Part shown: piece by piece, positions 1 to 28,869 of the stretch
Layout: each line of letters starts with the position of its first letter
How positions within the stretch are numbered: position 1 is the first letter of the stretch
DNA from: Candidatus Poriferihabitaceae bacterium
GTDB taxonomy: Bacteria; Pseudomonadota; Gammaproteobacteria; Arenicellales; Poriferihabitantaceae
Direction of reading: 5' to 3'
Assembly: GCA_965206445.1 (NCBI GenBank)
Contig: CBDBJR010000002.1
Coordinates: 520,719-584,718 of the forward strand
DNA: 64,000 bases
The notes under the pieces: generated by a model
What the model saw: the letters and a program-made list of their open reading frames with translations, nothing else
Databases searched by the model: none
What the model was told of the DNA's origin: nothing
Program-made: the position numbers and the translations under genes

Positions 1-36
1 TCCCTCTCCCTCTGGGAGAGGGATTAAGGGTGAGGG
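1..36. repeat. REP-like palindromic element (ccctctccc-tctg-ggagaggg followed by gggtgaggg)
   Basis: Inverted repeat CCCTCTCC/GGAGAGGG. The same family recurs at 39469-39506 (inverted), 39617-39653, 40167-40205, 40244-40280 and 40321-40357. Confidence 0.7.
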
Positions 37-872
37 AAAATAATCTGCTGCACTCAAAAAGAAAAAACAAAATCACAAAAACCCTCGAATCCCGCATGGC
101 ACTGCACCGCTTCATGTGCCACCAATTCGGCTACCAAACCCTGCGTGAAATCCTGGATCGCCTGAAATACCTATCAGATCAATTAGACAAAAAACAAGGC
201 AGCGATTTTGCTCAGGGGATATTGATAAACCTTCAAAGCACCACCCCCACAACAAAGCAAGACTTTGCCCGTTACGATACCAACATCGCCCTCCATAGCC
301 AGACTCTGGGCATGACCGATGAAAAAGGCAGATCGTGGAAACCGTTTCAATATCTCGCCCTGCTCTTTACCGAGCGCTACCTCGATTTGTATTTCCAGGA
401 CCCGGAAACCCTGATTAAAAAACTAAACCAATGGAAACAGACCGAACGCGCCTACACCGACATTCCCGAATATACGATCGACGATCTCCAGACCCTGGCC
501 TTCCAAAGCGCGACCGGTTCGGGCAAAACACTGCTTTTGCACGCCAACATTTTGCAATACCGGCATTATCTGGAACAGCACAAGCGACTGCACAAACTCA
601 ATAAAATCATACTGGTAACCCCGGACGAGGGGATGTCCCGCCAGCACTTGCGCGAACTGCAAGCAAGCAACATTCCGGCGCAGCTGTTCTCGGACGATGC
701 GGCAACCGACGTTTTTTCCCGTGGCGGCACGATGGTGGATATTATCGATATACACAAGTTTGCCGACAAAAAAGGCATAAAACGGGTTACACCGGAAGCG
801 TTTGAAGAAAACAATCTTGTGATGGTGGGCGAGGGGCATTTGGGAACCGGCGGCAAGAAGCCGTGCCGCTGA
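30..872 (+). pseudogene. N-terminal fragment of a DEAD/DEAH (superfamily 2, Res-like) helicase-nuclease gene
   Basis: Walker A motif FQSATGSGKTLL. The ORF stops right after a motif II-like VMVGEGH, and the next ORF overlaps it by 10 nt in another frame. No helicase C-terminal domain follows. Confidence 0.45.
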
Positions 873-1582
873 AGAATGACAACCCGAACTATGTTGAGAA
901 GTATGAGTTGTCTGTCGATGCGAAGGAAAAAAAGCTGATAAAAGAGATTGAACAATTGGTGAAAGAGGTCAAACAGAGCAGATATCAGCTTGCAGATACA
1001 TACGAGTTGAACTTGCTGGATGGAGCGGAGTTATCGCTTCTGGAACCGGAATTTCATGCTTACATACCGCTGCTTCATTGCGACACACGGAAAGACATTC
1101 AAATCTCGCCCGTCGCTTTGAATGGCGGAGAAGCTAAATTTGTAAAACAGCTAAAAGTTGTTGTGGAAGGCAAGCACAGGACTGACTTTCTGCACGGCAA
1201 GGAGATATACCTGATGCGAAATTTGAGTCGTGGGAAAGGCGTTTCGTTCTTTGATGATTTTTCTTTCTACCCGGATTTTATTCTCTGGGTAAAAGATGCG
1301 AACAGGCAGGACATTCTGTTTATAGACCCGAAAGGGCTTGCGTACTATGACTCCAAGATCAAATCTAAAGTGGACCTGCATAGACGAATAAAGGAAACGC
1401 AGAAAAAAATCCAACAGAAGCATACTGAACTGTTTTTACATTCCTATATCTGGACGAACACAAAACCCACAAACATTGGCAGCGACACAAAAATGACGCT
1501 GAAAGAGTGCCGGAAACTGGGCATATTCCTTGATAGCAACCTGGAAATCATATTAAAGCATGCCCTTACAAGTGACGCCTGA
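863..1582 (+). pseudogene. C-terminal fragment of the same helicase-nuclease (PD-(D/E)xK-like tail)
   Basis: YPDFILWVK...ILFIDPKG resembles a PD...(D/E)xK nuclease core. It overlaps the upstream ORF out of frame. The region is AT-richer than the backbone. Confidence 0.4.
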
Positions 1583-2249: not shown

Positions 2250-2525
2250 TCTATTTCCTCATAAATGGTTTGAATTGGCTAATATAGCAATATCCGCGGT
2301 CGGGCGACCAAAGAGCCGGTCAGCCGACGCGGGTCAGGTAGAAAATACCACAGATTACCATCTCAATTCACGACAGGCACCGATTGAAAACGCGCTTTTT
2401 TTATCGCCCGGTGGCGCTGCGAGCGGCGGCGGAATCTGCGCCCCGGTGTCCGGCAGCGCCACTCGGGGATGAACCGCCCGACGGTGGGGCGAGAATTTGG
2501 TGGCGGATGCTGGTATAAGGTGGCC

Positions 2526-3956
2526 ATGAGCGCTGAAAATCAATCCACCGGCTGGGGTGCTCTGCTGACGCGGGCGCATTTGCCCCGGCTGGCCGTGATG
2601 GCGCTGGCGCTCTGGCTGCACGCGTCCAATTCCCTGCTGGCGGCGACCACTTTGCCCAGCGCCATCGCGGATATCGGCGGGCTCAATCTGATTAGCTGGG
2701 CGTTTGCGCTGTATCTGATGGGCTCGATCACGGCCGGCCCCTGCGTCAGTCTGCTGGTGCATCGCTTCGATATTCGCGGAACCATGCTGCGCGCCACGCT
2801 GATTTTCGCTCTGGGCTGCGCCATTTGCGCCTCGGCGCCCAGCATTTACCTGTTGCTGGCGGGGCGGATCATTCAGGGGTTCGGCGGCGGCCTGCTGGTG
2901 GCGCTGGTCTATATTTGCCAGGTGCGGTTTTTTCCCAACCGGTTCGTGCCCAGGATAGTGGCCTGCATGTCAATGGTGTGGATGCTGTCGGCGCTTTGCG
3001 GGCCGCTGATCGGCGGGGCGTTCGCCACCTGGGGCCTCTGGCGCATGGCATTTTGGGCCTACGCGCTCCAGGCGCTGGCGCTGCTGCTGGCGGTCCGGGT
3101 GATGCCGTCCGGGGACGAAGCATTGCCGGTGGAATCGAAACGCATTCCGCTGGTGCGGCTGACCTTTCTCGTCGGCGCCATCCTGTCGGTGTCCCTGGCG
3201 GGCGCGTATTTTCACCCGCTCTTCTCGCCGCTGCTGATTCTGGTCGGCATCGGCGCACTGGCGGCATTCATCTACTGGGATCGACGGGCCGCCGTCAACC
3301 GCATGCTGCCGCTGGCGCTGACCCGGCTCGACCACCGCGTCGGCAGCGGCATCACGATGACGTTTTGCCTCAGCCTGTCGATCATGTCTTTTATCGTGTA
3401 CGGCCCGCTGATTCTGATCAATCTGTATGGGCTGTCGCCGTTGCAGGTGGGCTTTGTAATCATGCTCGAATCGGTCGGCTGGACGCTGGGCGCGGTTTTC
3501 CTGTCGGGGCTTTCCCCGCAGGCCGAACGCTACCTGATTCGCAGCGGCAGTGTGCTGGTCGCCTTCGGCCTGATCAGCATGGCCGCGTTTTTGCCCAACG
3601 GCCCCCTGGCCGTCGTCATCGTCTGCATCATGCTGCAAAACGTCGGCATGGGCATGATGTGGGGCTACATCGTCCGGCGGGTAGTGGACTCCGCCGACGC
3701 CGACGAGAAAGACCGCACGTCCACGCTGATTCCGGCCACCCAGCAATTGGGGTTTGCCCTTGGTGCGGCATTGAGCGGGCTGATCGCCAACGGCCTCGGC
3801 TTGAGCGCCGCCCTGTCCCCGGAGCGACTAAAGGTGATCACCGTCTGGCTGTTCATCGGCTTCCTGCCCTGCGCTCTGGTGGGCATCGTGCTGGCGTGGA
3901 AATTTACCCGGCAACCGACGACTGTGGCGCAGGCGGAGTCTGGGGGGGTGCTGTGA
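2526..3956 (+). CDS. MFS transporter
   Basis: Long hydrophobic multi-TM ORF with 12-14 predicted helices by eye. The start is placed at the internal ATG 2526 (MSAENQ) and is uncertain. Confidence 0.75.
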   Translation: MSAENQSTGWGALLTRAHLPRLAVMALALWLHASNSLLAATTLPSAIADIGGLNLISWAFALYLMGSITAGPCVSLLVHRFDIRGTMLRATLIFALGCAICASAPSIYLLLAGRIIQGFGGGLLVALVYICQVRFFPNRFVPRIVACMSMVWMLSALCGPLIGGAFATWGLWRMAFWAYALQALALLLAVRVMPSGDEALPVESKRIPLVRLTFLVGAILSVSLAGAYFHPLFSPLLILVGIGALAAFIYWDRRAAVNRMLPLALTRLDHRVGSGITMTFCLSLSIMSFIVYGPLILINLYGLSPLQVGFVIMLESVGWTLGAVFLSGLSPQAERYLIRSGSVLVAFGLISMAAFLPNGPLAVVIVCIMLQNVGMGMMWGYIVRRVVDSADADEKDRTSTLIPATQQLGFALGAALSGLIANGLGLSAALSPERLKVITVWLFIGFLPCALVGIVLAWKFTRQPTTVAQAESGGVL

Positions 3957-4014
3957 TGCAGTGGGGGAGTGTGATGGGTTGGATGCGAGTGGCGGCGGTT
4001 GTCAGCTTGCCGGC
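3673..4014. repeat. Direct repeat copy 1 (3' end of the MFS gene plus ~55 nt downstream)
   Basis: Near-identical to 5721-6051. Only a few substitutions and small indels are seen by eye. Confidence 0.9.
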
Positions 4015-4077
4015 GGTAGACAAATGCTTTGCAGCATTGGTCGACAAATTGCAGTGCGAAAAGTGGGGGGTAGAGGT

Positions 4078-4938
4078 ATGCATGCGCAATATCAAATCAT
4101 AGAGATTGGTCTCGCCTCGGTGGAGGAGAGTGAGACGATGGGCACCAGAGAGAAATTCTGGTTTCGTGATGTGGACGGGCGTCCCTGGCTATTCAAGCAT
4201 CCGCGTAAAAATACGGGCGAGCACTGGGCGGAGAAGATTGCCGCATCAGTAGCATCCATGCTCAAGGTTGCGCATGCGAAGGTAGAGCTGGCAAAGTTTG
4301 GCGGTGTGCGTGGCTCGGCGACAGCGTCTTTTATCTGTAATGATGAAGCTTTGTTTCATGGCAACGAGCTATTGGAAGAGTTCATTGATGATTACGATCC
4401 TGAGGCCGGATTTCGCTACTCAAGCCATACACTGAAAAATATCTTGAGCTTAGGACCAGATTTCGACATGAAGCAAGCCATTGCTGAATACATGGTTTTG
4501 GATGCATTGATTGGCAATACGGACCGTCACCACGAAAACTGGGGGATGATCTACAACACTGGGGATAAAAGCTGGCAGGTTTTGGCAGCCCCTTCGTTCG
4601 ATCACGCATCTTCTTTAGGGCGGGAGCTTCTGGATGAGAAGCGCGATAGGCTGATGAAGGAGGATCGGGTCGGCCACTATGCGAAAAGGGGACACGGTGC
4701 GATTTACTGGTCGGAGGACGAAAAACGCGGCCCCAGCCCGCTGGAACTGGTGCGCCGTGCGGCCAGCACCTATTCGAATCTTTTCCATAAGGTAGCCGGA
4801 AATCTTAAAAAGATACGCGAGGATGATTTTGATCAAATAATCGCCAGGATCCCTGCGGATTGGATGACAGGCCCGGAGCGGCAGTTTGCAGCTGAACTTA
4901 TGCGCTATAATTACAGCAAGCTACGGGAGGTTTTATGA
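4078..4938 (+). CDS. HipA-like Ser/Thr kinase (C-terminal kinase domain type)
   Basis: The LIGNTDRHHENWG catalytic-loop motif is characteristic of the HipA C-terminal domain. ATG 4078 is preceded by gaggt. The stop overlaps the next gene start (ATGA). Confidence 0.75.
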   Translation: MHAQYQIIEIGLASVEESETMGTREKFWFRDVDGRPWLFKHPRKNTGEHWAEKIAASVASMLKVAHAKVELAKFGGVRGSATASFICNDEALFHGNELLEEFIDDYDPEAGFRYSSHTLKNILSLGPDFDMKQAIAEYMVLDALIGNTDRHHENWGMIYNTGDKSWQVLAAPSFDHASSLGRELLDEKRDRLMKEDRVGHYAKRGHGAIYWSEDEKRGPSPLELVRRAASTYSNLFHKVAGNLKKIREDDFDQIIARIPADWMTGPERQFAAELMRYNYSKLREVL

Positions 4939-5681
4939 ATACAAAAGTCTTATTTTTGGCATGGCAGGGTAAAAAAGCAGACGGCCAGCCCTGGTTTCCG
5001 GTCGGCAGGTTGGATGTCGAGTCTGATACGTCCTATCGCTTCCGCTACATCGGCGGTGTACAACGAGCAGTAGAAAGGGCGGGGTTTTCGCCGTTGCCCA
5101 GCTTTCTTGATCTGGAAAAAGATTATCGTTCCTCAAAGCTGTTTGCCCTGTTCCAAAATCGGATTATGAAGCCGGCAAGACCCGACTTCGAGGCGTATTT
5201 GCGCAGCCTTGACTTGCACAATAACGCCAACCCCATCGAAATTTTATCGGCCAATGGCGGTACCCGGGCAACGGATACTTTCGAGGTTTTTCCGAAGCCC
5301 GAAAAGGACGCTAAAGGCAATTTTACCTGTCGCTTCTTCCTGCACAGCTGGCGATATAGCAATGAATTCGCTCGACAACGAATTGATTTCTTGAAGGAGG
5401 GTGAAGACTTGTACCTGACCCTGGAACTGACCAATCCGGAAACCGGACTGGCGGTACAGGTTCAGACGACGGACTATTACATGATCGGCTGGGCACCGCG
5501 TTATCTCGTGGATGATTTGGCGAGTGCGATGGTCGAAGGCCCCGTTGATTACAAAGCGAAAGTAATACGCTTAATCCCTCAGTCGGCGCGATCGAAACAG
5601 CGTGTTTTGATCGAGATGAGCGGGCGCTGGAATAAGCACGAACCAATGAGCAGCCCGGATTTCGAGCCTTTGGTTGAGTGA
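4935..5681 (+). CDS. HIRAN domain-containing protein
   Basis: The C-terminal half (LYLTLELTNPETGLAVQVQTTDYYMIGWAPRYL) fits the HIRAN pattern (L.L..E..NP.D..AV.V....IG..PR). It is translationally coupled to the HipA-like gene. Confidence 0.6.
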   Translation: MNTKVLFLAWQGKKADGQPWFPVGRLDVESDTSYRFRYIGGVQRAVERAGFSPLPSFLDLEKDYRSSKLFALFQNRIMKPARPDFEAYLRSLDLHNNANPIEILSANGGTRATDTFEVFPKPEKDAKGNFTCRFFLHSWRYSNEFARQRIDFLKEGEDLYLTLELTNPETGLAVQVQTTDYYMIGWAPRYLVDDLASAMVEGPVDYKAKVIRLIPQSARSKQRVLIEMSGRWNKHEPMSSPDFEPLVE

Positions 5682-5720
5682 CTCTCTTCCGATAACACAG
5701 TCCGTCACAACGCGACAACA

Positions 5721-6051
5721 TCCGGCGGGTAGTGGACTCTGCCGACGCCGACGAGAAAGACCGCACGTCCACGCTGATTCCGGCCACCCAGCAATTGGGG
5801 TTTGCCCTTGGTGCGGCATTAAGCGGGCTGATCGCCAACGGCCTCGGCTTGAGTGCCGCCCTGTCCCCGGAGCGACTAAAGGTGATCACCGTCTGGCTGT
5901 TCATCGGCTTCCTGCCCTGCGCTCTGGCGGGCATCGTGCTGGCGTGGAAATTTACCCGGCAAACGACGACTGTGGCGCAGGCGGAGTCTGGGGGGTGCCG
6001 TGATGAAGCAGGTGAGTGTAACGGGTTGGATGCGAGCGGCGGCGGTTGTCA
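5721..6051 (+). pseudogene. Duplicated 3' fragment of the MFS gene (direct repeat copy 2)
   Basis: Encodes VDSADADEKDRTSTLIPATQQLGFALGAALSGLIANG...AQAESGG, almost identical to the C-terminus of the 2526-3956 product. It has no N-terminal part. Confidence 0.9.
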
Positions 6052-6086: not shown

Positions 6087-6611
6087 TTATAGATTGAGCA
6101 CTTTTTTTAGCCATTCGGCGGCGGCGTTGACATCGCACAGGGCGGTCACTTCGGCTCCTTGTCGGCGGTAATCGATTTTCTCTCCTGCCAATTTGGCCGA
6201 CCAACCGCCGCTTTTCGACATCACCGCAACCGGTTTGTCGAGTTGCCATGCAAAAGCAATTTCGGAAAGCGTTCCCGACCCCCCGCGCACGCCGATACAG
6301 GCGTCACCGGCACGGGCAACAAGCAAATTACGAAACAGATCGAGCCCGGTCGGGATGACAATATCGACGAACGAATTGGCGTCATCGAACTTGGCCGACG
6401 GAATAATGCCGATGGTGTCGCCCGGCTCGTAGCCGGTGGCGGTTTTTGCACCGCGGCATACGGCGGTCATTGCGCCGCCGAGTCCACCACAAACGATTCG
6501 GCAGTTCAGGTTCACAATCTCCCGCCCAAGGTCTTCGCACAGCGACTCGACTTCGGGCGCACCGGAAAGATCGTGGGAGCCGAATACGGCAACGGATGGT
6601 TTTCTTTTCAT
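6087..6611 (-). CDS. TIGR00725/LOG-like (SLOG Rossmann fold) protein
   Basis: 174 aa. The motifs VFGS...CGGLGGAM...GGSGTLSEI are typical of the lysine-decarboxylase-like/LOG superfamily. Confidence 0.65.
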   Translation of the reverse strand: MKRKPSVAVFGSHDLSGAPEVESLCEDLGREIVNLNCRIVCGGLGGAMTAVCRGAKTATGYEPGDTIGIIPSAKFDDANSFVDIVIPTGLDLFRNLLVARAGDACIGVRGGSGTLSEIAFAWQLDKPVAVMSKSGGWSAKLAGEKIDYRRQGAEVTALCDVNAAAEWLKKVLNL

Positions 6612-6771
6612 TTGATGAATTATACAGGTTTATAGAGATAACAAGACGCCAAAAAAAAATCCGTCAAAGGGGTGTATAAGCTCAGAAACGGTTGGCAGTT
6701 TGCTATAATGCCGCCTCGGTGCCTGGCTTAACCGGCACATTGCCGACAATGGAAATTTTATACTCAGACCA

Positions 6772-7872
6772 ATGATAAAGCGCATCCACATTGACAACTA
6801 CAAGTGCATGAGCAACTTTGACCTGCACTTTGGCGATTTAACGCTGCTTGCCGGGCCAAACGGCTGCGGCAAGTCCGCCGTGTTTGAAGTGGCGCAGAAA
6901 TTGCGCGACCTCATCCACAACGAAAAGCGGGTCGATCAATTGTTTTTCGCCGCCGACCTTACGCGCTGGAGCAACAACCTTAAGCAGCGCTTTGAGTTGG
7001 AAATCACCCGCAAGGAAGGCGGCGATTATCTTTATCAGCTCACCATTGAGCATCACCACGACAAGCCGCTGGTGCGCGTGATAAAAGAAAACCTGTTGTT
7101 TAACGACAAGCCGCTGTTCGCGTCCGAAAACGGCGATGTGCAGCTGTACCGAAATAACCACAGCGAAGGGCCGACGTTTTCGATGGGTTGGACACAGTCC
7201 GGGCTTGCCGTGGTGGCCGACCGGCCCGATAACACGCTGCTGCAGGAATTTCGCCAGCAAGTCCACCGTTTGACGATAGTCTCGCTGGAGCCCAGACAAA
7301 TGCTGGCGGTTTCCGATGTCGAAGCGAATACGCCGGCCGTCAGCGGGAAAAATTTTGCCTCGTGGTATCGCGGAAGATTGCAGGCAGATCCCACGCGCAC
7401 GGTAAAAGTCGACGACCATTTGCGAGATATTCTGCCGGGATTCTGCGGCCTGAAATCCATGCGGCAAAGCACCGAGCACTGGGAACTGCATGCGGAATTT
7501 TCTTCGGCGGAGGGAAAGCAAAAAAGCACCTATCGCTTTGACGCACTCTCCGACGGGCAGCGCGCATTGATTGTGCTTTATCTGCTGCTGTTTGCCGATG
7601 ATGCCAACCGTACGCTGCTGTTGGACGAGCCGGACAACTATGTCACCCTGCCGGAACTACAGCCCTGGCTGGCCGAGTTAAAAGACGAATGCGGCGATGA
7701 ATTGCCGCAAACCGTATTGATTTCGCATCACCCGGAAGCATTGAATTTTCTCCCTAACGACACGATCTGGCTGACGCGCGAACCGGAAAGCCACACGCGC
7801 ATTGCCGAACCCTCGTTAAATGGTACCGGACTCAGCATCTCTGAACTTTACGCGAGAAGGCAGATTCCATGA
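6772..7872 (+). CDS. ABC-type (AAA_15/21-like) ATPase
   Basis: Walker A GPNGCGKSA, ABC signature LSDGQRAL, Walker B LLLDEPDNY. No TM segments. The stop overlaps the next gene start (ATGA). Confidence 0.75.
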   Translation: MIKRIHIDNYKCMSNFDLHFGDLTLLAGPNGCGKSAVFEVAQKLRDLIHNEKRVDQLFFAADLTRWSNNLKQRFELEITRKEGGDYLYQLTIEHHHDKPLVRVIKENLLFNDKPLFASENGDVQLYRNNHSEGPTFSMGWTQSGLAVVADRPDNTLLQEFRQQVHRLTIVSLEPRQMLAVSDVEANTPAVSGKNFASWYRGRLQADPTRTVKVDDHLRDILPGFCGLKSMRQSTEHWELHAEFSSAEGKQKSTYRFDALSDGQRALIVLYLLLFADDANRTLLLDEPDNYVTLPELQPWLAELKDECGDELPQTVLISHHPEALNFLPNDTIWLTREPESHTRIAEPSLNGTGLSISELYARRQIP

Positions 7873-8399
7873 GCCGCCCGTTCACCACCATCCTTTGCGA
7901 AGATCAGCAACAACAAACATTCATTTACCGCTTTTTGAAACGACGAGGATGGAAGAAAGACAACTTTCGCCTGATTGCAGTACCGGCAGGAAAGGCTGAC
8001 GGCAAGCAACATGTCCGAGAAAAATACCCCTTTGAATTGCGCGCTTTGCGTACCGCCACAAAACACACCGCGCTTGTGGTGATGACTGACGGCAACGGGG
8101 ACGGCATACAGAAAAGGATGAACCAATTGGATAATGCCTGCGACAAGGAAAATATTGGGCGCCGAAAATCCGACGACAAAGTGGTTGTGCTCATCCCCAC
8201 CCGCAACATTGAAACATGGCTCGCCTATTTGGGTGGCGAATCCGTGGATGAAACGCAGCCATATCTCCAATTCAAGAAAGAAGGGAAATACAAGCGTCAT
8301 GTGACCGCACTGATACAAATGTGCAATGCCAACGAATTGCGCCCCCCCGCACCGCCCTCGTTGCAAGCAGCATGCGAGGAATACGCAAAATTGCGGTGA
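7869..8399 (+). CDS. Small TOPRIM-like protein (DUF4276/RloB-like partner of the ATPase)
   Basis: 176 aa with an N-terminal acidic ILCED, a central DxD-type MTDGNGDG and a late IETW motif. This is the layout of split OLD-family TOPRIM partners. The family assignment is by pattern only. Confidence 0.45.
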   Translation: MSRPFTTILCEDQQQQTFIYRFLKRRGWKKDNFRLIAVPAGKADGKQHVREKYPFELRALRTATKHTALVVMTDGNGDGIQKRMNQLDNACDKENIGRRKSDDKVVVLIPTRNIETWLAYLGGESVDETQPYLQFKKEGKYKRHVTALIQMCNANELRPPAPPSLQAACEEYAKLR

Positions 8400-8549
8400 T
8401 ACCGCAATTTGATTCCGCTTCAACCACAAAAAACCGCCCACCTGTTTTTTCGATTCGCGCGATGTTGCCGCCAAAATCAATACCGTCAAAAACAGCGTAT
8501 CACACCCGCCAACCGAAACAGTTTTAACCCCCCTTACCCTTTACCCGCA

Positions 8550-10056: not shown

Positions 10057-10919
10057 TGTTGCACCCGATGTTCGAGCATGTTGCGAAACTGCTCCACCGC
10101 CTCATCATCGGCGCCGTAGCTGTGCTCCGCATCCGGGAAGGTGCCGGCCTTGACTTCCTCGACATAGCGCCGCAGGCCGCTGACCGCCGTTTCGGTCAGG
10201 TTGGCGTAGCGCTTGGTGAAGCGCGGTTTGAAATCCGTGAACACGCCGAGCAGATCGTAGGACAGCAGAATCTGGCCGTCGGTGCCGGCGCCGGCACCGA
10301 TGCCGATGGTGGGGATCTCCAACTGCTGCGAGATCAGCGCCGCCATCGGCGCCGGTACCGCTTCGAATTCGACCATGAAACAGCCGGCGTCCTGAATCGC
10401 CAGCGCATCTTCGAGAATGCGCATCGCGGCGGCGGCGGTTTGCCCCTGGGTTTTGAAGCCGCCGAAGACGGCGATGGTATGCGGCGTCAGCCCGATATGC
10501 GAGGCCGTGGGAATGCCGGCATCCACCAGCGCCTTCAGGATATGCGCCTGGGATTTGCCGCCCTGCGGTTTGACGGCGTCACACGCCGCCGCCTGCATAA
10601 ACCGCGCGGCGTTGGCCAGCGCCCGGTCGACGGTATGGTAGCTCTGGTACGGCATACAGCCGAGCACAAAGGTATTGGCCGCACCGCGCCGCACCGCCTG
10701 GGCGTGCAGCACCATCATGTCCATCGTTGCCGGAATAGTCGAGCTGTGGCCGTGGGCCACCATGGCGAGGCTGTCGCCGACGACGCAGACGTCCACGCCG
10801 GCCATTTCAGCCCAGCGCGCCGACGTGTAATCGGGCACCGACGTATAGGCCATTTTCTCGCCGTTGACTTTGGATTGCCGGATTTCGGTAATCGTGCGCT
10901 TGGGTTTCTGGGTTGACAT
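10053..10919 (-). CDS. panB: 3-methyl-2-oxobutanoate hydroxymethyltransferase
   Basis: Conserved PanB blocks VGDSLAMV.HGH.ST, KPQGG and HIGLTPH. The start is set at ATG 10919 (MSTQKPK) rather than the upstream extension of the ORF. Confidence 0.85.
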   Translation of the reverse strand: MSTQKPKRTITEIRQSKVNGEKMAYTSVPDYTSARWAEMAGVDVCVVGDSLAMVAHGHSSTIPATMDMMVLHAQAVRRGAANTFVLGCMPYQSYHTVDRALANAARFMQAAACDAVKPQGGKSQAHILKALVDAGIPTASHIGLTPHTIAVFGGFKTQGQTAAAAMRILEDALAIQDAGCFMVEFEAVPAPMAALISQQLEIPTIGIGAGAGTDGQILLSYDLLGVFTDFKPRFTKRYANLTETAVSGLRRYVEEVKAGTFPDAEHSYGADDEAVEQFRNMLEHRVQH

Positions 10920-11001
10920 TGAGCGTTTCCGGTTGCAACCGGCCAGGGATGCAGCGCGCCGATTGCGCGGCGGGCAGCGTAAACCAGGGCCGTATAGCGG
11001 T

Positions 11002-11083
11002 ATGCATATTACGGCATGCATATTACGGCATGCATATTACGGCATGCATATTACGGCATGCATATTACGGCATGCATATTACT
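11002..11083. repeat. 14-bp tandem repeat, ~5.8 copies (atgcatattacggc)
   Basis: Perfect head-to-tail copies read directly from the sequence. Each unit carries the palindrome ATGCAT. The array lies ~85 nt upstream of the panB start. Confidence 0.95.
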
Positions 11084-11194
11084 TTGGCCATGATATATAT
11101 GCAAGTGATATAAATGTTGTATTTTACTTATATATCAATTAAATTTCAGCCCTAAGCTATCTTAATCTATCTATCGCCCCGATTTCGCGGGGCA

Positions 11195-16358: not shown

Positions 16359-18332
16359 ATGCAGCAGAACAAATTCACCTGGATCACCAATTTTATCTGG
16401 GGCATCGCCGACGCGACGCTGAGAGATGTTTCCAATAAGGGCAAGTACCGCGATGTGATCCTGCCGATGGCCGTGCTGCGGCGCTTTGACGTCGTGCTGG
16501 AGGAAAGCAAGCAGGCGGTTCTGGAACAAAAAACCTCACTCGACCACGCCGGCGTGGTGGAGCAGGAACAGGCGCTGCGCCAGGCCGCCGGGCAGGCTTT
16601 CTATAACACCTCGAAGTTTACGCTGCGCGACCTGCATGCGCGCGGCAGACAGGCGCAGCTCAAAGCCGACTTTGAAGACTATCTGGATGGCTTCTCGCAC
16701 AATGTGCAGGACATCCTGAACAATTTTGAATTCCGCAATCGGATCCCCCGACTGGTTAAAGCCGATGCGCTGGGGACGCTGATTGAAAAATTCCTTTCGC
16801 CGGAAATCAACCTGGGCCCAAAACCGGTGCTCAACGGCGACGGCTCGGTTAAACATCCGGGCCTCGACAATCACGCCATGGGCACGATTTTTGAAGAACT
16901 GGTACGCCGTTTCAACGAAGACAACAACGAAGAGGCGGGCGAGCACTGGACCCCGCGCGACGCCGTCGAGCTGATGGCCCGCTTGATCTTTCTGCCGATT
17001 GCCGATGACATCAAATCCAGCACCTATTTGCTGTACGACGGCGCCTGCGGCACCGGCGGTATGCTGACCGTGGCCGAGGAAACGCTGCAACGTCTGGCCA
17101 AAGAGCGCAACAAGCAGGTGTCGATCCATCTCTACGGCCAGGAAATCAACGCCGAAACCTACGCCATCTGCAAAGCCGACCTGCTGCTCAAGGGCGAGGG
17201 CGAGGCGGCGGACAATATCGTCGGCGGCTCCGAGCATTCCACGCTTTCCAACGACGCCTTCCCGTCACACGAGTTTGACTTCATGCTCAGCAATCCCCCG
17301 TACGGCAAGGATTGGAAAGTCGATTTGGAACGCATGGGCGGCAAGCGCGACCTCAACGACCCGCGCTTTATAGTTGAGCACAACGGCGATAATGCGTATT
17401 CGCTGGTCACCCGATCGAGTGACGGCCAGATGCTCTTCCTCGCCAACCTGCTGTCGAAGATGAAGCGCAATACAAAACTCGGCAGCCGCCTCGCCGAGGT
17501 GCACAACGGCAGCTCCCTGTTCACCGGTGACGCCGGCCAGGGCGAGAGCAACATCCGCCGCTGGATGATCGAAAACGATTGGCTCGAAGCCATTGTCGCC
17601 CTGCCGCTCAACCTGTTTTACAACACCGGCATCGCCACCTACATCTGGGTGCTGACCAACCGCAAACCCGAACACCGCCGGGGCAAAGTGCAGCTCATCA
17701 ACGCCACCGAGTGGTACCGACCACTGCGCAAAAACCTGGGCAAGAAAAACTGCGAGCTGGGCGAGGATGATATTCAACGCATCTGCGATGCATTTCTTGG
17801 CTTCAAGGAAACCGAGCAGAGCAAAATCTTCGATAACCGGGCTTTCGGCTACTGGAAAGTCACTGTGGAGCGGCCATTGCGCATTGCGGGTGCTGATTCT
17901 GACCGTGTCTGCAAGGCTGCTGAGATTAAGAAACTCAAGGAGGAAGGTGCCCGTAGCGAGGATGCTCGGCCTGTTGTCAGGAAGATACATAAACAGGGCA
18001 CCGTGCCTGACCCGCTGCGCGGTCTGTTTGCAGCGACTATCAACGGCAAGCCCGCCGTGGTAGAGTACGAACCCGACACCGACCTGCGCGACACCGAGCA
18101 GATTCCGCTGCTGGAAGAGGGTGGGATTGCGGCGTTTCTTGAGCGTGAAGTGTTGCCCTATGCTGCTGATGCGTGGTATGTTGAAGATAGCGTCAAGATT
18201 GGGTATGAGATCAGTTTTACTCGTTATTTTTATAAGCCGCAGCCGATGCGGACGCTGGAAGAAATCCGGGCGGATATTCTGGCATTGGAAGGCGAAACCG
18301 AGGGGCTGTTGTGCAAAATCATTGATGGATAG
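16359..18332 (+). CDS. hsdM: Type I restriction-modification system, methyltransferase subunit
   Basis: HsdM N-terminal pattern (NFIWGIAD.LRD), AdoMet motif LYDGACGTGGML and catalytic NPPYG. The start is at ATG 16359. Confidence 0.9.
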   Translation: MQQNKFTWITNFIWGIADATLRDVSNKGKYRDVILPMAVLRRFDVVLEESKQAVLEQKTSLDHAGVVEQEQALRQAAGQAFYNTSKFTLRDLHARGRQAQLKADFEDYLDGFSHNVQDILNNFEFRNRIPRLVKADALGTLIEKFLSPEINLGPKPVLNGDGSVKHPGLDNHAMGTIFEELVRRFNEDNNEEAGEHWTPRDAVELMARLIFLPIADDIKSSTYLLYDGACGTGGMLTVAEETLQRLAKERNKQVSIHLYGQEINAETYAICKADLLLKGEGEAADNIVGGSEHSTLSNDAFPSHEFDFMLSNPPYGKDWKVDLERMGGKRDLNDPRFIVEHNGDNAYSLVTRSSDGQMLFLANLLSKMKRNTKLGSRLAEVHNGSSLFTGDAGQGESNIRRWMIENDWLEAIVALPLNLFYNTGIATYIWVLTNRKPEHRRGKVQLINATEWYRPLRKNLGKKNCELGEDDIQRICDAFLGFKETEQSKIFDNRAFGYWKVTVERPLRIAGADSDRVCKAAEIKKLKEEGARSEDARPVVRKIHKQGTVPDPLRGLFAATINGKPAVVEYEPDTDLRDTEQIPLLEEGGIAAFLEREVLPYAADAWYVEDSVKIGYEISFTRYFYKPQPMRTLEEIRADILALEGETEGLLCKIIDG

Positions 18333-18396
18333 CGATCCGCTTATGGAGAATAAGGATATTAAAGAGTGGTAGATAGCTTTGTATTAAGCTAGAATT

Positions 18397-18426
18397 TTGA
18401 CTATGCTCATTTGCTTGTTGTACAAT
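18397..18426 (+). promoter_or_regulatory. Candidate sigma70 promoter for the DUF262 cassette
   Basis: -35 TTGACT (18397-18402), 18-nt spacer, -10 TACAAT (18421-18426). It lies ~40 nt upstream of ATG 18468. Confidence 0.4.
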
Positions 18427-18467
18427 AAAATTTGATACAGATTAAACGAGGGCTAAAAGGTGACATC

Positions 18468-19562
18468 ATGAATAAACCAGAAAATCTTAAATATATTGAG
18501 GAACAAACGTACATAGAAGATAGCAGTCCAGAGATACCGCCTCCTGACGTTGTCGCATACAATGAACTCCGGTCGTGTGCGGACCTCCATCGCATGGAGA
18601 CAAGTGGAATATTGAATATTCAACCTGAATTCCAACGCGAACTTGTATGGAAAAAGCCAGCTCAGACAAGATTTATCGATTCGCTAATTAAACAGCTTCC
18701 TATTCCAAGCATGTGCTTCAGTCTTGATTTTAAAGAACAAAAGTGGCAGGTAATCGATGGTCTCCAGAGAATGTCAGCAATTTGTAGTTTCCTTTCTGGA
18801 GAGCCGTGGAAATTATCACGTCTTGATGATATAGATAAAAAGATTTCAGGTCAGTCAGTCTCAGCTTTTCATAGTGATACATCTGATCTCCACCAATACT
18901 TGACTCGTGTTCAAAACCTGGCTCTCCCAATTACAGTAATACGGTGCGATTACTCTAATCAGTTGCATACCTATTATTTATTCACCATCTTTCATAGACT
19001 CAACACAGGAGGAATGAAGCTAAACAATCAAGAAATTCGGAACTGTATTTACTCAGGAGAACTGAATAATCTCTTAAAAAAGCTTGATCAATATCCGGAT
19101 TGGAAACGATTAAACCGTATTAAAAAGACAGTCGTATATCGATTCTCAAAACAGGAGCTTATTCTTCGCTTATTTGCATTTCACGATTCGTACAGGTCAT
19201 ACAATGGTCGATTGGCAAGTTTTTTAAACGAGTATATGAACAAGTATCGCAACTTACCAGAGAAGAAGAAAAATAAGAAACAAGACCTTTTTTGCCGCAC
19301 TGTAAATATAGTATACAGAAAGATATTCGAAGGAACTCCGCCACAGAAGCAATCTTTGTCCGTATTAGAAGCCTTACTTGTTGGTGTCTCTTTTAATCTG
19401 GATTATTTGGAGGCCATACCAAAAACAAAAATTATAAAACTGTACAAAGATCTTCTTAAACATGAAGAATTTTCGGAAGGAAAACTTATTGAGGGCCTCT
19501 CTGGCAAGCCACGAGTAATTGGTCGAATTGAAGCTGCACGTACGATATTTTCTGAAAAATGA
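18468..19562 (+). CDS. DUF262 (ParB-like/GmrSD N-terminal type) domain protein
   Basis: QPEFQRELVW and DGLQRM motifs (DUF262 FQR...W and DGQQR). No DUF1524/HNH tail. AT-rich. RBS aaaggtg. Confidence 0.75.
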   Translation: MNKPENLKYIEEQTYIEDSSPEIPPPDVVAYNELRSCADLHRMETSGILNIQPEFQRELVWKKPAQTRFIDSLIKQLPIPSMCFSLDFKEQKWQVIDGLQRMSAICSFLSGEPWKLSRLDDIDKKISGQSVSAFHSDTSDLHQYLTRVQNLALPITVIRCDYSNQLHTYYLFTIFHRLNTGGMKLNNQEIRNCIYSGELNNLLKKLDQYPDWKRLNRIKKTVVYRFSKQELILRLFAFHDSYRSYNGRLASFLNEYMNKYRNLPEKKKNKKQDLFCRTVNIVYRKIFEGTPPQKQSLSVLEALLVGVSFNLDYLEAIPKTKIIKLYKDLLKHEEFSEGKLIEGLSGKPRVIGRIEAARTIFSEK

Positions 19563-20053
19563 AAAACATTGAAAAGACGGAAATCGGTCAAAACCTAGAA
19601 ACTCTAAACATACTTTACACCAACAGTGCAAATAACAGAGAGGCTCTTTTTTACTCGAAACTTGCTGTGCTTGAACTTTGCGCGTGGCTTGAAGAAACCA
19701 TGGAAGAAGTGGTTCGGTCTTACGTTGTTCTTAATATAAAAAATAAAGAAAACCAAAATAGTATAGAAAACTCCATTATCAGACCAAATCATGGATTTGA
19801 CTATAAAGGTAATTTTCGGAAGATGCTTATTCGTGTTGTAGGGTTTCGAGGAATTGAGACTATGGAGGACGCAGCAGGTTCGGCTACAATCTATACTCTC
19901 GAAAGTACTACACGTACACTTAAGAAAACCAGAGACAGGCAAGTACACACTTATTTTAATACCACTATGAACTTGGAAGCCCCATCGATAATTATGGGAC
20001 ACTTTAATAATATGTTTCAAGCACTTGAGAAATTTCAGGATGCCATGAAATAA
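19559..20053 (+). CDS. Small HEPN-like protein (Rx4H motif), partner of DUF262
   Basis: 164 aa, all-helical by composition, with RDRQVH matching Rx4H near the C-terminal third. The start overlaps the DUF262 stop (ATGA). Confidence 0.45.
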   Translation: MKNIEKTEIGQNLETLNILYTNSANNREALFYSKLAVLELCAWLEETMEEVVRSYVVLNIKNKENQNSIENSIIRPNHGFDYKGNFRKMLIRVVGFRGIETMEDAAGSATIYTLESTTRTLKKTRDRQVHTYFNTTMNLEAPSIIMGHFNNMFQALEKFQDAMK

Positions 20054-20143
20054 GAATAGTTATAAAAAATTAGGATATTCTTTCAGGTTAAGGTTAATTA
20101 AATTAGTGAAAATAATAAGGCTAAAATAGCAAAGGTACTGAAA

Positions 20144-20446
20144 TTGCACCTCTATCCAAAATATAAAAATTCCATTGTTAAGTGGCTGATGGAAGCACCA
20201 GAGTATTCGAAAGTACGGCAGCTACGGGCTGTATCAGAGATGGGCGTCAGAAACGACGATAAACATTTCAGGGATAACTATGAGATTAGTTTTACTCGTT
20301 ATTTTTATAAGCCGCAGCCAATGCGGACGCTGGAAGAAATTCGGGCGGATATTCTGGCGTTGGAGCAGGAAAGTGGCGGGTTGGAAGCAATTATTGGGCG
20401 TGGAGAACTCAACATGAACTTGCTGGAGAAAATAAAAAATGACTAA
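20144..20446 (+). pseudogene. Chimeric scar: hsdS 5' stub fused to a copy of the hsdM 3' end
   Basis: N-terminal LYPKYKNSIVKWLMEAPEYSKVRQL resembles an HsdS N-terminus. 20279-20373 is near-identical to hsdM 18204-18298 (EISFTRYFYKPQPMRTLEEIRADILALE). Confidence 0.75.
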
Positions 20447-21896
20447 TGGCGCGCAAACATTCGACGACCACCAAAAAGGGATTCTGCTGAAACGGGCGGA
20501 ACCTGAAGTCAAGACTGATGAACCATGGGCAGATGACGCTTTAGATCGTAGTGAAGTGGCAAACGCGCTGACCAATCTTGTTTCGGGGCAGAAAGACCCG
20601 CTGGTTATAAGTCTGGATGGATACTGGGGAACAGGCAAAACATTTTTACTCAAGCGCTGGCAGGTGGAATTGGAAAAACAAGGCTTTCAGTCTATTTATT
20701 TCAATGCATGGGAAGACGACTTTTGCGACGATCCTCTTGTGGCCATCATAGGGCAACTATCAGCTAGCCTGGAAAAAGATTTTAAGAATATAGTAGATGA
20801 TATCAAAAAAGATATAGTACCTTTACTTGGAAAAATCCTTCTTAGCGTTATACACAATACCGCTGGTATAGATTTCGGTGGTGTCACTCTTAAAGAGCCC
20901 ACAGACTCGATTTTAGAAAAATATGCATCTCAAATAAAGCAGAAAAAAGAAATAAAAGAGCATTTGCAGAAAATATCAGACGAAGTAATGAAGAATACTA
21001 AGCAACCTTTGGTATTTATTATTGATGAACTTGATCGATGTCGCCCAACTTTCGCTATCGAGCTTTTGGAAAGAGTAAAACATATATTCGATATTCCCGG
21101 CATGGTTTTTGTTTTTGGTATCAATCAGGGCGAGCTGTGTTTAGCAATTAAATCAGTTTATGGGGACATTGATGCTGATACCTATCTTCGACGTTTTTTT
21201 GACATACCTTTATTATTGCCGAAAGCAAACATAGAGAATTTTTGTAGACATTTGATTGAGAAATATGAATTGGAAGAGTTTTTTTCGAAACTACGCATAA
21301 GTGCAAGTGACCCTATTCATCGGGAAGATTTTTATACTTTTAATACTTTCTTTCCTTCTTTCTATAATAATCTGGATTTGTCTCTTCGAGATGTTGATCA
21401 TTGTATCAGGGCATTTTCCTTTGTAGGAAAAAGTATTAAGAAAGGGCAAAAGATGTTTCCATTTCTTGTTGGCGCATTAATTGCCCTGCGAGTAAAAAAT
21501 CAGACCTGTTATCGAGATTTTATTACACAGAAATGTTTTGGAGCCGATGTTATGGATTACATCAATGAGGTGATGTCTGATGAAAATATAAATAGCAAAT
21601 TAGGAGACGCTCTCCGTGTTATAGAAATTATTTTGTATGTTACAGATCGTGGGCGCGGACGTGATTCTCTCGGACAATTAAGAATTTTTCTGGATGGCGA
21701 TGAGCCATCTCATCCAGAATATTTATCTAAAAAAATAAAAAAAATATGCAAAGAACAAGATTCAAATAAACAAATAATAGAGGCTTTTGATTTGCTGATA
21801 TCTGATAGCTGGGTTATCCGTGAAACTCCAGAGCTCAAGTATGTTTCCAGTTTGATTGAGCTTACTCAAATAACTACGCAGAGTAAGCCATGGTGA
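20439..21896 (+). CDS. KAP family P-loop NTPase
   Basis: Walker A in the KAP context (ISLDGYWGTGKTFLLKRW) and Walker B FIIDELDRC. 485 aa, AT-rich. Confidence 0.75.
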   Translation: MTNGAQTFDDHQKGILLKRAEPEVKTDEPWADDALDRSEVANALTNLVSGQKDPLVISLDGYWGTGKTFLLKRWQVELEKQGFQSIYFNAWEDDFCDDPLVAIIGQLSASLEKDFKNIVDDIKKDIVPLLGKILLSVIHNTAGIDFGGVTLKEPTDSILEKYASQIKQKKEIKEHLQKISDEVMKNTKQPLVFIIDELDRCRPTFAIELLERVKHIFDIPGMVFVFGINQGELCLAIKSVYGDIDADTYLRRFFDIPLLLPKANIENFCRHLIEKYELEEFFSKLRISASDPIHREDFYTFNTFFPSFYNNLDLSLRDVDHCIRAFSFVGKSIKKGQKMFPFLVGALIALRVKNQTCYRDFITQKCFGADVMDYINEVMSDENINSKLGDALRVIEIILYVTDRGRGRDSLGQLRIFLDGDEPSHPEYLSKKIKKICKEQDSNKQIIEAFDLLISDSWVIRETPELKYVSSLIELTQITTQSKPW

Positions 21897-22087
21897 AATT
21901 GCTTCCTTTCTCAGAATATGAAGATTCCATTGTTGGGTGGCTGATGGAAGTACCAGTGCATTGGAAAGTACAGCGGCTATGGATTGTCCTAAGGATGCGC
22001 ATCAGTAATTTAGACAAACACACTACGGATGGCGCGATTCCTGTTCGGCCCTGTAGCTTTGCTAAAAGGGTGATTTTTAACTGTTAG
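21890..22087 (+). pseudogene. hsdS 5' stub
   Basis: LLPFSEYEDSIVGWLMEVPVHWKVQRL parallels the N-terminus of the intact HsdS (KPYSKYKDSDVEWLGKISAHWKRL) and the stub at 20144. It is only 65 codons long. Confidence 0.65.
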
Positions 22088-22210
22088 GAATTCTTTAGTG
22101 TATGAGCCGAAGATATTTTCGGGAAAGGTAAGGATAATATGACAGATTATTTGTCTTTGGTTTCACTTCCAGATTAGGAATGTTAGACAAATATACTAAC
22201 CGCAAAATAT

Positions 22211-22786
22211 GTGCAGCAACCAGTAATTGAAGAAAAAATTGTGCGTGAAAAAACTTTTAAAGCATTAATAATTGGAGTAGTTGCCTCAGTATTGGGAGGG
22301 ATTTTTCTGCTATATGGCACAGAGTACATTGTCAAACCTTTTTTGTGGCTTAAGTCTGCTATTCTATGGTCTTGGAACTTTTTGATTTCATCTCATTCTC
22401 TGCCCGGATGGGTTTTGCTGATTGTTTTTTTGTTTGCTTCTCTGTTTATTATTTTTGCAGTGATTTATTTTTTGGTGAAGATCGATAAAAATTCTGAATC
22501 TAAACATCTACTGTATACCAAAGATATTATGTTTGGAGCAATATGGCGATGGAAGTGGATGGGAAATCAAATATCTAATATTTGGTGCTATTGCCCTTAC
22601 TGTGACACAATGCTGGTTTATGATGAGCATTGGGGAGAAACATACTTTAGATGTGAGAATTGCAATAACTCTGTTATAGCTACTTTTGACTGCTCTAAAA
22701 ACCGAGCGATACGTAGAGTCGCGCATCAGATTGATAGAAAACTCCGGTCGGGTGAATTTAGAAAAATTATCACATCTAACCAATAA
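22211..22786 (+). CDS. Membrane protein with C-terminal zinc ribbon (hypothetical)
   Basis: 2-3 N-terminal TM helices, then CYCPYC...(17)...CENC. GTG start, uncertain. Confidence 0.45.
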   Translation: MQQPVIEEKIVREKTFKALIIGVVASVLGGIFLLYGTEYIVKPFLWLKSAILWSWNFLISSHSLPGWVLLIVFLFASLFIIFAVIYFLVKIDKNSESKHLLYTKDIMFGAIWRWKWMGNQISNIWCYCPYCDTMLVYDEHWGETYFRCENCNNSVIATFDCSKNRAIRRVAHQIDRKLRSGEFRKIITSNQ

Positions 22787-22796
22787 CAAATAACCC

Positions 22797-24083: not shown

Positions 24084-24322
24084 TGCTGGCCGAATGCAGG
24101 CGCCATTGCGCATGAATTCGGTCAGATACACACTCCAGACATTCAGATAGCGGATTTTTTGCGGGTACATCCGCTTTCCGTCGGCACCGGGAAGCACAAT
24201 GGTGCTGCATTGCTCCTTCGGTGCCGGGCACGTTATAATCGACCTGACGAGACAGCCTTCGTCAACCGGAATACGCCATATTATTGATTTGAGTACGTTA
24301 GAGCAGGAATCGGGGGAACACC

Positions 24323-27907: not shown

Positions 27908-27972
27908 AACATATTTTTTTTTATTGCAAAAATCAGGATTTTCTTTATGTATTATTGCGTTATCAGTTAGCT
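27908..27972 (+). promoter_or_regulatory. CRISPR leader (AT-rich) of array 1
   Basis: 65-nt AT-rich stretch between the cas13a stop and the first repeat. The degenerate repeat is at the far end of the array. It is duplicated at 29860-29924. Confidence 0.6.
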
Positions 27973-28869
27973 GTTGAAGATGACCCCCATATGAAGGGGG
28001 ACTACACCGACAGATGTTCCCAATCCCACCGATTCTGCAGTTGAAGATGACCCCCATATGAAGGGGGACTACACCTAAAACGGCGTTATATCGCATCTGA
28101 CGGCCGTTGAAGATGACCCCCATATGAAGGGGGACTACACCCGTAATCCAGTTGGATCAAATTCTATTGCTGTTGAAGATGACCCCCATATGAAGGGGGA
28201 CTACACCTGCGTCCGACTGCACCAATTGCGCGGTCAGGTTGAAGATGACCCCCATATGAAGGGGGACTACACCTGCGTCCGACTGCACCAATTGCGCGGT
28301 CAGGTTGAAGATGACCCCCATATGAAGGGGGACTACACCCTTGCAAGGATGATGTTGTTTTGCTCGTTTGTTGAAGATGACCCCCATATGAAGGGGGACT
28401 ACACCCACAACGTCTTTGCGGTGCTCGTTCGCTTTCGTTGAAGATGACCCCCATATGAAGGGGGACTACACCTGATCAACCCGCCGATTAAATTCCGGCG
28501 TCGTTGAAGATGACCCCCATATGAAGGGGGACTACACCAGCGCGGACGGTGTATAGAAGGTGGTCGTAGTTGAAGATGACCCCCATATGAAGGGGGACTA
28601 CACCTGTATGGGCGTGATACTGCGCATTTGCACCGTTGAAGATGACCCCCATATGAAGGGGGACTACACCATCACCACCATTATTTCGCTGGCCGGCCTG
28701 GTTGAAGATGACCCCCATATGAAGGGGGACTACACCCGGATCCATTGACTCCATGCCTTCCCTATAGTTGAAGATGACCCCCATATGAAGGGGGACTACA
28801 CCCAAGACGTTATTTTTGTAATCTGTTTTTCAAGTTGAAGATAACCCCCATATAAAGAGGAACCACACG
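27973..28869 (+). CRISPR. CRISPR array 1: 14 x 36-nt repeat (gttgaagatgacccccatatgaagggggactacacc), 13 spacers of 30-31 nt
   Basis: All repeats were located by eye at 27973, 28040, 28106, 28172, 28238, 28304, 28370, 28437, 28503, 28569, 28635, 28701, 28767 and 28834. The last repeat is degenerate. Spacers 4 and 5 are identical. Confidence 0.97.

Follow-up and report, generated by a model that had tools for sequence, protein, structure and literature searches.

How did a two-gene cassette, encoding a HipA-type kinase and a HIRAN-domain protein, come to lie between two nearly identical copies of the end of its neighbouring transporter gene? This question is raised by the region 3673-6051 of the window, that is, the whole stretch of 64,000 nucleotides (nt) of a Candidatus Poriferihabitaceae bacterium genome (assembly GCA_965206445.1, contig CBDBJR010000002.1) analysed here, and an earlier note on this DNA had already drawn attention to the arrangement. 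Judging from sequence families and structural models, the gene pair appears to be an ordinary new member of the hipIN modules, listed as the candidate phage-defence system PDC-M03. As for its position, we consider it likely that the repeat around the hipIN module is the old scar of homology-anchored cargo stacking in a variable defence slot. The region is organised as follows:

2469..3956, plus strand: MFS (DHA2/EmrB-like) transporter gene, a conserved anchor on the left side of the slot (Pfam MFS_1 2.5e-31; NCBIfam efflux_EmrB 2.9e-24)
3673..4004, plus strand: repeat copy A, the live MFS 3' end (284 nt) with a 48-nt tail (only 4 polymorphic coding-part sites in 5 strains)
4005..4077, plus strand: spacer of 73 nt upstream of hipI, with a TTGCAG...TTGCAG direct repeat and the ribosome-binding site GAGG
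4078..4938, plus strand: hipI, short HipA-family Ser/Thr kinase of 286 amino acids (aa), the putative toxin (Pfam HipA_C 5e-9; PADLOC PDC-M03A 4e-79)
4935..5681, plus strand: hipN, 248 aa, the putative antitoxin and DNA-end sensor (Pfam HIRAN 1.4e-7; PADLOC PDC-M03B 9e-74)
5682..5720, plus strand: spacer of 39 nt after hipN, meeting copy B on its right at a putative illegitimate joint
5721..6051, plus strand: repeat copy B, a dead, frameshifted MFS 3' stub (~16 polymorphic coding-part sites; further indels in some strains)

The duplication of the MFS gene end in two near-identical copies, as described in the earlier note, was confirmed. Specifically, copies A (3673-4004) and B (5721-6051) are ~95% identical over 332 nt, of which the first 284 nt close the MFS gene and the remaining 48 nt lie beyond its stop codon; the note had extended copy A to 4014, about 10 nt too far, while its remaining coordinates were right. 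The two copies are 97% identical in the MFS coding part (the first 284 nt of the repeat) and 87% identical over a 62-nt piece running from the last codons to 48 nt past the stop. The G-run preceding the MFS stop counts seven residues in copy A (~3942) and six in copy B, and owing to this 1-nt indel copy B is out of frame across the last MFS codons. A search of the whole 4.0-Mb assembly returned exactly these two copies (E = 3e-172 and 5e-152), and therefore the repeat cannot be attributed to chance. The homology between A and B, both with a GC content of 0.64-0.65, stops 48 nt past the stop codon, after which copy A leads into hipIN and copy B into a SLOG gene. As the earlier note had argued, such a repeat is far too long for a transposon target duplication and fits a homology-based or duplication-type insertion. 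The sequence CCGGCGGTAGACA (4010), resembling the repeat start TCCGGCGGGTAGTGGAC, was weighed as an att-like core and left as a probable chance match in GC-rich DNA.

Between the two copies lie exactly two genes, a HipA-type kinase gene and a HIRAN gene without HipB, translationally coupled and AT-richer than the host, all of which agrees with the first description of the locus: the hipI stop and the hipN start overlap as ATGA, and both genes have a GC content of 0.51, vs 0.64 for the MFS gene. Translation of hipI begins at ATG 4078, preceded by GAGG at a distance of 4 nt and matching the start of its homologues; a longer kinase open reading frame (ORF) from 3961 was rejected as the artefact of an upstream in-frame GTG. 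HipI matches the PDC-M03A model over its full length, contains the motif GNTDRHHENWG and is the only HipA-family kinase of the whole genome. The integrity of the catalytic residues, on which the earlier note had made its reading of the kinase depend, was checked against HipA of E. coli K-12, and all core residues are intact. Specifically, K40, D149, H151, N154 and D175 of HipI align with K181, D309, H311, N314 and D332 of HipA, with K40 as the ATP-binding residue, D149, H151 and N154 in the catalytic loop and D175 as the Mg-binding residue. The segment MGTREK (21-26) resembles the HipA Gly-rich loop AGAQEK, a match made by eye in a segment left unplaced by the aligner, and T23 is the Ser/Thr by this loop. 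The first ~150 HipA residues, namely N-subdomain 1 and the adjoining N-terminal region, are missing from HipI. Its AlphaFold2 model (pLDDT 78) finds its best Foldseek match in H. pylori CtkA (TM 0.73-0.80), followed by HipA and HipT. A promoter scan upstream of hipI found no consensus sigma-70 promoter. In addition, TTGCAG occurs twice, 20 nt apart, flanking a GTCGAC palindrome (4029-4054) at 25-50 nt upstream of the hipI start; this pair could be an operator.

The partner protein, HipN, is made of a HipS-like N-domain (~1-110) and a HIRAN C-domain (~131-228), and matches the PDC-M03B model over its full length. Its AlphaFold2 model (pLDDT 85) matches the HIRAN structures 3k2y and 4s0n (HLTF) in Foldseek, and the model of the N-domain superposes on HipS of the Legionella HipBST complex, 7vkb_B (TMt 0.76). 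Sequence searches of the PDB with HipN, both as a single sequence and as a profile, gave no match, and fold comparison alone succeeded.

This is the architecture named hipIN by Gerdes, Baerentsen and Brodersen (2021, mBio; PMC8262856), in which HipI is a short kinase and HipN combines a HipS-like part with HIRAN; in the Hip kinase tree of these authors hipIN forms clade XI, with kinases of 279-321 aa (PMC8262856). The pair in the window shares with it the short kinase without N-subdomain 1, the four kinase motifs, the Ser/Thr by the Gly-rich loop, the absence of HipB and the order of the genes, with the kinase first and the HipS-like-HIRAN gene downstream. Nothing structural sets it apart, and the only difference is that the lineage of this copy is not listed in the paper. 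Both component models of PDC-M03 (PADLOC-DB v2.0.0) are matched at full length by the adjacent genes; PDC denotes candidate systems, and anti-phage activity is not evidenced in the literature searched. The proposal of the earlier note that kinase and HIRAN protein form a distinct module was not borne out, the pairing having been described in 2021 (PMC8262856) and catalogued in PADLOC; the gene pair itself thus adds little to what is known.

Two related systems were compared with the pair. In hipBST (E. coli O127, Legionella pneumophila; PDB 7AB4, 7VKB, 8EZR) HipS, a small separate protein that corresponds to the detached HipA N-subdomain and is encoded upstream, neutralises the truncated kinase HipT. 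The resemblance resides in the N-domain model of HipN, which fits HipS as described above, and in the kinase model, which superposes on HipT, even if the HipI fold is nearer to CtkA (TM up to 0.80) than to HipT (~0.58). In contrast with hipBST, the locus has two genes, no HipB, and a HipS-like part that is downstream and fused to HIRAN; a tricistronic hipB-hipS-hipT operon was ruled out by the presence of two genes only and by the downstream position of the HipS-like part. Canonical hipBA of E. coli K-12 has the kinase superfamily and the catalytic residues in common with the pair, and differs by its helix-turn-helix (HTH) antitoxin, by the N-subdomain 1 of its kinase and by the reversed gene order. 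No HTH ORF was found between 3957 and 6086, and HipA has ~440 aa in canonical hipBA vs 286 aa for the kinase here. Lacking a HipB HTH gene and having a short kinase, the locus was not assigned to hipBA.

Whether the two genes are conserved together, a point raised in the earlier note, was surveyed in 80 hipI loci from species-representative genomes, 79 of them informative. The outcome was uniform: hipN follows the kinase at 2-27 nt in 79/79 informative loci, and the contig of the 80th ends 142 nt past the kinase. These loci come from more than ten phyla (Latescibacterota, Acidobacteriota, Gemmatimonadota, Chloroflexota, Proteobacteria, Verrucomicrobiota, Spirochaetia and others), many of them from sponge-symbiont bins, and in the protein collection the kinase family exceeds 5,400 members and the partner family 1,700. 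Within the family of the window, hipN was found in 3/69 genomes, at 57-63% identity. Because of its strict adjacency across phyla and its patchy presence within this family, hipIN is regarded as a horizontally moving two-gene unit. The copy in the window is likewise probably of foreign origin, as suggested by its GC content (0.51 vs 0.64) and by its rarity among the family genomes.

Domain make-up, catalytic residues, gene overlap and strict co-conservation are directly supported by these data, while we infer the toxicity of the kinase, its target, its neutralisation and its triggering by DNA. HipI would, by analogy with HipA and HipT, halt growth by phosphorylating an essential translation component. 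The HipS-like N-domain of HipN would fit onto the kinase where N-subdomain 1 is missing, keeping it inactive, and the HIRAN domain would bind free DNA 3' ends, for example those of phage replication intermediates, thereby releasing the kinase. The released kinase would then give rise to abortive infection or to toxin-antitoxin behaviour. A comparable scheme, in which HIRAN senses phage DNA ends and frees the kinase, was proposed by Gerdes et al. (PMC8262856).

The arrangement was followed through nine strain-level assemblies, namely the window and eight same-species contigs of the ENA long-read metagenome ERZ25069326, which are syntenic with the window and 93-99% identical to it in DNA. In the sister assemblies the MFS product is called as a protein of 476 aa starting at 2526. 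All nine keep hipN and copy B. An intact hipI-hipN pair is present in six, the window included, and the repeat geometry is identical wherever the contig reaches; both repeat copies, in the same geometry, are found in L023, L024, L106 and L117. In the other three assemblies (L109, L116 and L118) the segment corresponding to 3982-4856 of the window, that is, the last 23 nt of the copy A tail, the spacer and the first 260 hipI codons, is replaced by ~4.7 kb (L109:2581-7202 on the minus strand, L116:10523-15168 and L118:10522-15197), and an orphan hipN is left intact. The replacement encodes a protein of 1,337-1,355 aa matching Tiamat TmtA (PADLOC 2e-64), with a weak Pfam Sacsin-domain match below the family cut-off, and a 151-aa ORF without a family match. 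Among the strains carrying TmtA are the most abundant assembly (134x) and the circular 3.9-Mb chromosome. A hipI gene without hipN was not seen in the nine assemblies, and the distribution of six with hipI-hipN, three with hipN next to Tiamat and none with hipI alone fits a role of hipI as the toxic partner.

This strain series represents a natural experiment and marks the site downstream of the MFS gene as a live defence slot. The slot, which stops short of the core GntR and panB genes, starts ~25-48 nt past the MFS stop. It qualifies as a variable slot, with cargo that varies between strains, flanks that are 97-99% identical and no mobility genes. Since the TmtA swap begins 23 nt before the end of the A/B homology, the 48-nt tail stretch is a cargo boundary that has been used more than once. 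The precise excision envisaged in the earlier note is possible in principle and finds no support in the strains: 9/9 assemblies keep hipN and the stub, and neither an empty nor a single-repeat site was found among them. With regard to the cargo itself, hipN DNA differs by up to 5% (up to 26/248 residues) between strains with 98-99% identical flanks, and dN/dS between strain pairs is mostly ~0.3-0.45 and higher in the closest pairs; hipN is thus more diverged than the surrounding core.

Cargo that lacks mobility genes and lies between conserved flanks, with a homologous anchor of a few hundred base pairs, is typical of the minimal mobile elements of naturally transformable bacteria and of homology-facilitated illegitimate recombination. 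The slot resembles these in its strain-variable, anchor-acquired cargo without mobility genes. It differs in that such processes replace or delete DNA as a rule, whereas in the window the anchor occurs twice; transformation would be a hypothetical route for this organism.

To assess the age of the repeat, eleven of its copies were compared column by column. The G-run deletion and two substitutions (3880 and 3915) are common to all B copies; polymorphic sites within the former coding part number ~16 among the B copies vs 4 among the A copies; and some B copies have acquired frameshifts of their own, three strains carrying a 1-nt insertion and L109 having lost 8 nt. In view of the changes shared by the strains and of the independent later frameshifts, we conclude that copy B is a pseudogene stub that has been decaying since before the nine strains diverged, and that copy A is the working gene end. 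The repeat is an old, vertically inherited recombination scar and not a sign of current mobility. Furthermore, the two parts of the repeat have diverged unevenly: the 48-nt tail differs by ~10% between A and B, and the 284-nt coding part by two sites and one indel (Fisher P = 4e-4; binomial P = 0.01 vs the neutral expectation from identical copies). This pattern suits a pair of anchors that already differed when the joint was formed. Another cause considered for the uneven divergence, purifying selection acting on two functional alleles, was dropped, given that both fixed coding differences are non-synonymous.

As to the machinery involved, neither a transposase ORF nor an inverted repeat was found at the cassette ends, and a transposon or insertion sequence was ruled out on these grounds together with the 332-bp length of the duplication. 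The genome has no phage-type integrase and no serine recombinase; its only candidates are two Xer-like tyrosine recombinases more than 1.8 Mb away (C2:2.41 and 2.84 Mb of G000, the 4.0-Mb assembly), although the window holds several foreign defence islands. With transposase, inverted repeat, integrase and serine recombinase all missing, host-type recombination remains. The reused boundary, the variable slot and the uneven A/B divergence in turn speak for the stacking of cargo that brings its own copy of the anchor. According to this model, hipIN would be the first of several foreign cargo blocks of lower GC content that are stacked in the slot. It would have arrived on a DNA piece behind an anchor of that piece's own (the MFS 3' end and tail), and the piece would have recombined into a resident MFS-SLOG locus, through homology on the left, anchor side and through an illegitimate joint at 5720/5721. 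The event may have been either a homology-facilitated illegitimate recombination or a Campbell-type single crossover of a circle, and its outcome would be the live end, copy A, before hipIN and the displaced stub, copy B, before older cargo.

To place this scar in a wider context, 78 analysable hipIN loci in other genomes were examined. In three Latescibacteria loci hipIN is preceded by 47-96 bp of the hsdR 5' end, left as a stub, and followed by an intact hsdR. A gammaproteobacterial locus (L074:1914-11313) reads pAgo (Piwi), SIR2, a 169-bp hsdR 5' stub, PIN, hipI, hipN and hsdR, and at L057 hipIN is enclosed by a duplicated flank of 1,469 bp, the second copy of which is directly followed by 51 bp left over from the hipN 3' end. 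The flanking repeats of L080 and L068 were set aside as multi-copy intergenic repeat families, and the non-coding, 232-bp repeat of L059 was rejected as a target duplication. In a placement test on direct-repeat pairs with 1-4.5 kb between the copies, 10/28 pairs bracket hipIN vs 2.5 expected (P ~1.5e-5), under a crude null of uniform placement and with the three Latescibacteria loci probably representing one event. G003, a genome of the same family as the window, carries hipIN without a flanking repeat. The gene-end scar is therefore recurrent and not universal.

Three other origins were weighed against the stacking of anchored cargo. The serious rival is a tandem duplication in situ, whereby in an MFS-hipIN-downstream locus a 2,048-bp unit (MFS 3' end and hipIN) was doubled and the second hipIN, with some downstream DNA, was later deleted. 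Tandem duplications are frequent in bacteria, and a hipN remnant after the second repeat copy, as seen at L057, is what such a history predicts. In the window no hipN remnant follows copy B, the divergence of the tail (~10%) and of the coding part (two sites and one indel) is too uneven for neutral decay (binomial P = 0.01), and two steps are needed where one suffices; on this balance we regard the tandem origin as unlikely for this locus. A further rival keeps the cassette active without an integrase: recombination between A and B would loop out a 2,048-bp circle, made of one anchor and hipIN, which would re-insert by homology into genomes bearing the MFS gene. A length of 332 bp at 95% identity suffices for RecA-mediated recombination, the excess of direct repeats around hipIN would agree with such traffic, and ComEC and DprA are both present, a weak point as most control genomes have both. 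The excess is derived from a crude null with loci that are not all independent, 0/9 strain assemblies lack the cassette or have a single repeat, and the strain-shared decay of copy B together with the fixed A/B differences indicates vertical inheritance without frequent loop-out and re-entry. An active cassette is accordingly improbable.

The last of the three origins is a decayed integrative element resembling a cis-mobilizable element (CIME), in which a tyrosine-recombinase element targeting the MFS 3' end lost everything except the addictive hipIN, and the repeats are attL and attR. Insertion at a gene 3' end with duplication of that end is the classic signature of integrative elements, such as e14 in icd. 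Against this, the slot and its surroundings contain neither an integrase nor a resolvase in the nine strains, and the genome has only the two Xer-like enzymes mentioned above and no serine recombinase, although an integrase may have been present in the past. Moreover, the repeat edges show no short core of identity, and the repeats of other hipIN loci, ranging from 47 to 1,469 bp and including hsdR 5' ends and a whole gene, are unlike att sites. We consider this origin very improbable.

Anchored stacking, the reading that we favour, also has points that weigh against it. The hipN 3' stub after the second repeat copy at L057 suits tandem duplication followed by deletion better. The two fixed differences in the coding part are both non-synonymous, unlike what is expected of two long-separated functional alleles, the copy B tail of L023 looks gene-converted, and the uneven divergence could just as well result from gene conversion of the coding part. 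Whether the event was an insertion or another rearrangement is deduced and not observed, as neither the strains nor the relatives searched yielded an empty or single-repeat site. Specifically, the MFS genes of 40 family relatives are at most 58% identical, without synteny and without an empty site; an exact 58-mer scan of JGI metagenomes gave 0 matches; a protein-guided scan of JGI metagenomes found only non-syntenic relatives at most 59% identical; and a look-up of all members of the MFS protein cluster found no empty site. Nor is there a close outgroup, the nearest MFS relatives being 58-59% identical and non-syntenic, so that the A/B differences are not polarisable. On the functional side, the comparison of the residue patterns of HipN and the HLTF HIRAN domain was made by eye only, and a literature search found no experimental paper on hipIN or PDC-M03, only the 2021 phylogeny.

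Stub-type scars are not limited to hipIN. In the window itself, the type I restriction-modification (R-M) operon (18204-30627) contains a 105-nt direct repeat at 18204 and 20279, 2,075 nt apart and 88% identical, and five copies of an hsdS 5' segment (20162, 21917, 23454, 29022 and 30578); this operon carries the same type of scars, which delimit cargo. Two CRISPR arrays with the 36-nt repeat GTTGAAGATGACCCCCATATGAAGGGGGACTACACC are also located there, at ~27973-28833 and 29925-30389. Elsewhere, 55-83-bp sequences found right after hipN (L040:7678-7760 and 10358-10440; L048 and L061 at ~7681) recur 2.6-4.2 kb further on with 91-99% identity, bracketing the next cassette, and the L040 repeat corresponds to the 3' end of a gene on the minus strand. 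These post-hipN repeats suggest cassette-by-cassette stacking with stubs.

A related concept, guilt by embedding (bioRxiv 10.1101/2024.01.29.577857), can be compared with these observations. In common with it, hipIN lies directly upstream of hsdR at L027 and L074, and the R-M operon of the window holds stacked cargo; the difference is that hipIN in the window adjoins the MFS gene, outside any defence operon. A term search of that preprint gave no passage on gene-end stubs. The recurrence of such stubs around hipIN and other defence cargo is the only part of the present results that goes beyond the literature found, and we regard it as a mildly new lead.

Could gene-end stubs be the footprint of a general, integrase-free spread of small defence and toxin-antitoxin cassettes, with hipIN as a favoured passenger? 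We put this forward as a tentative and rather doubtful idea. A cassette would travel with a copy of the end of the neighbouring gene as its homology arm and would enter by one-sided homologous recombination or as a looped-out circle, while the toxin-antitoxin nature of hipIN would punish loop-out, so that long repeats persist. A survivorship effect is also possible, a toxin-antitoxin pair between repeats penalising loop-out and preserving the repeats. If true, the idea would explain the duplicated gene ends of 47-1,469 bp around hipIN in unrelated phyla as well as the scars in the R-M operon. The recurrent stubs offer a testable clue to the growth of defence islands in the absence of recombinases and, if borne out by a systematic survey, would be relevant to defence-island turnover.

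The cargo that follows copy B in the slot consists of the following genes:

6087..6611, minus strand: SLOG cluster-4 / TIGR00725 gene, with which the next cargo block begins (Pfam LDcluster4 1.3e-31; TIGR00725)
6772..8399, plus strand: ABC-type ATPase gene (366 aa) with an overlapping gene for a 176-aa partner, defence-like (Pfam AAA_15, AAA_21; PADLOC HEC-01A 3.7e-24, PDC-M25A)

Between the SLOG and ATPase genes, a 5.9-kb insertion is present in L025, L106, L107 and L117 (window site 6673-6697; L025:2682-8548). This block, absent in the window, codes for a 113-aa ORF and for a glycosyltransferase/methyltransferase fusion of 1,191-1,708 aa. In addition, the stretch corresponding to 7926-8405 of the window, covering most of the 176-aa partner of the ATPase, is absent in L023 and L024, where a 75-aa ORF is found instead, and L118 has the 176-aa form; the small ATPase partner is thus itself variable between strains.

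Two further observations concern the surroundings of the slot. At the left end of the window (3-1582) a type III restriction res-like helicase gene is broken into fragments of 280 and 239 aa; compared with the intact gene of 1,040 aa (L024 2323-5445, and L117), the window lacks ~1.6 kb at position 857, a deletion shared by L109. Upstream of panB, at 10979-11090, a 14-bp tandem repeat (TATTACGGCATGCA) is present in ~6 copies.

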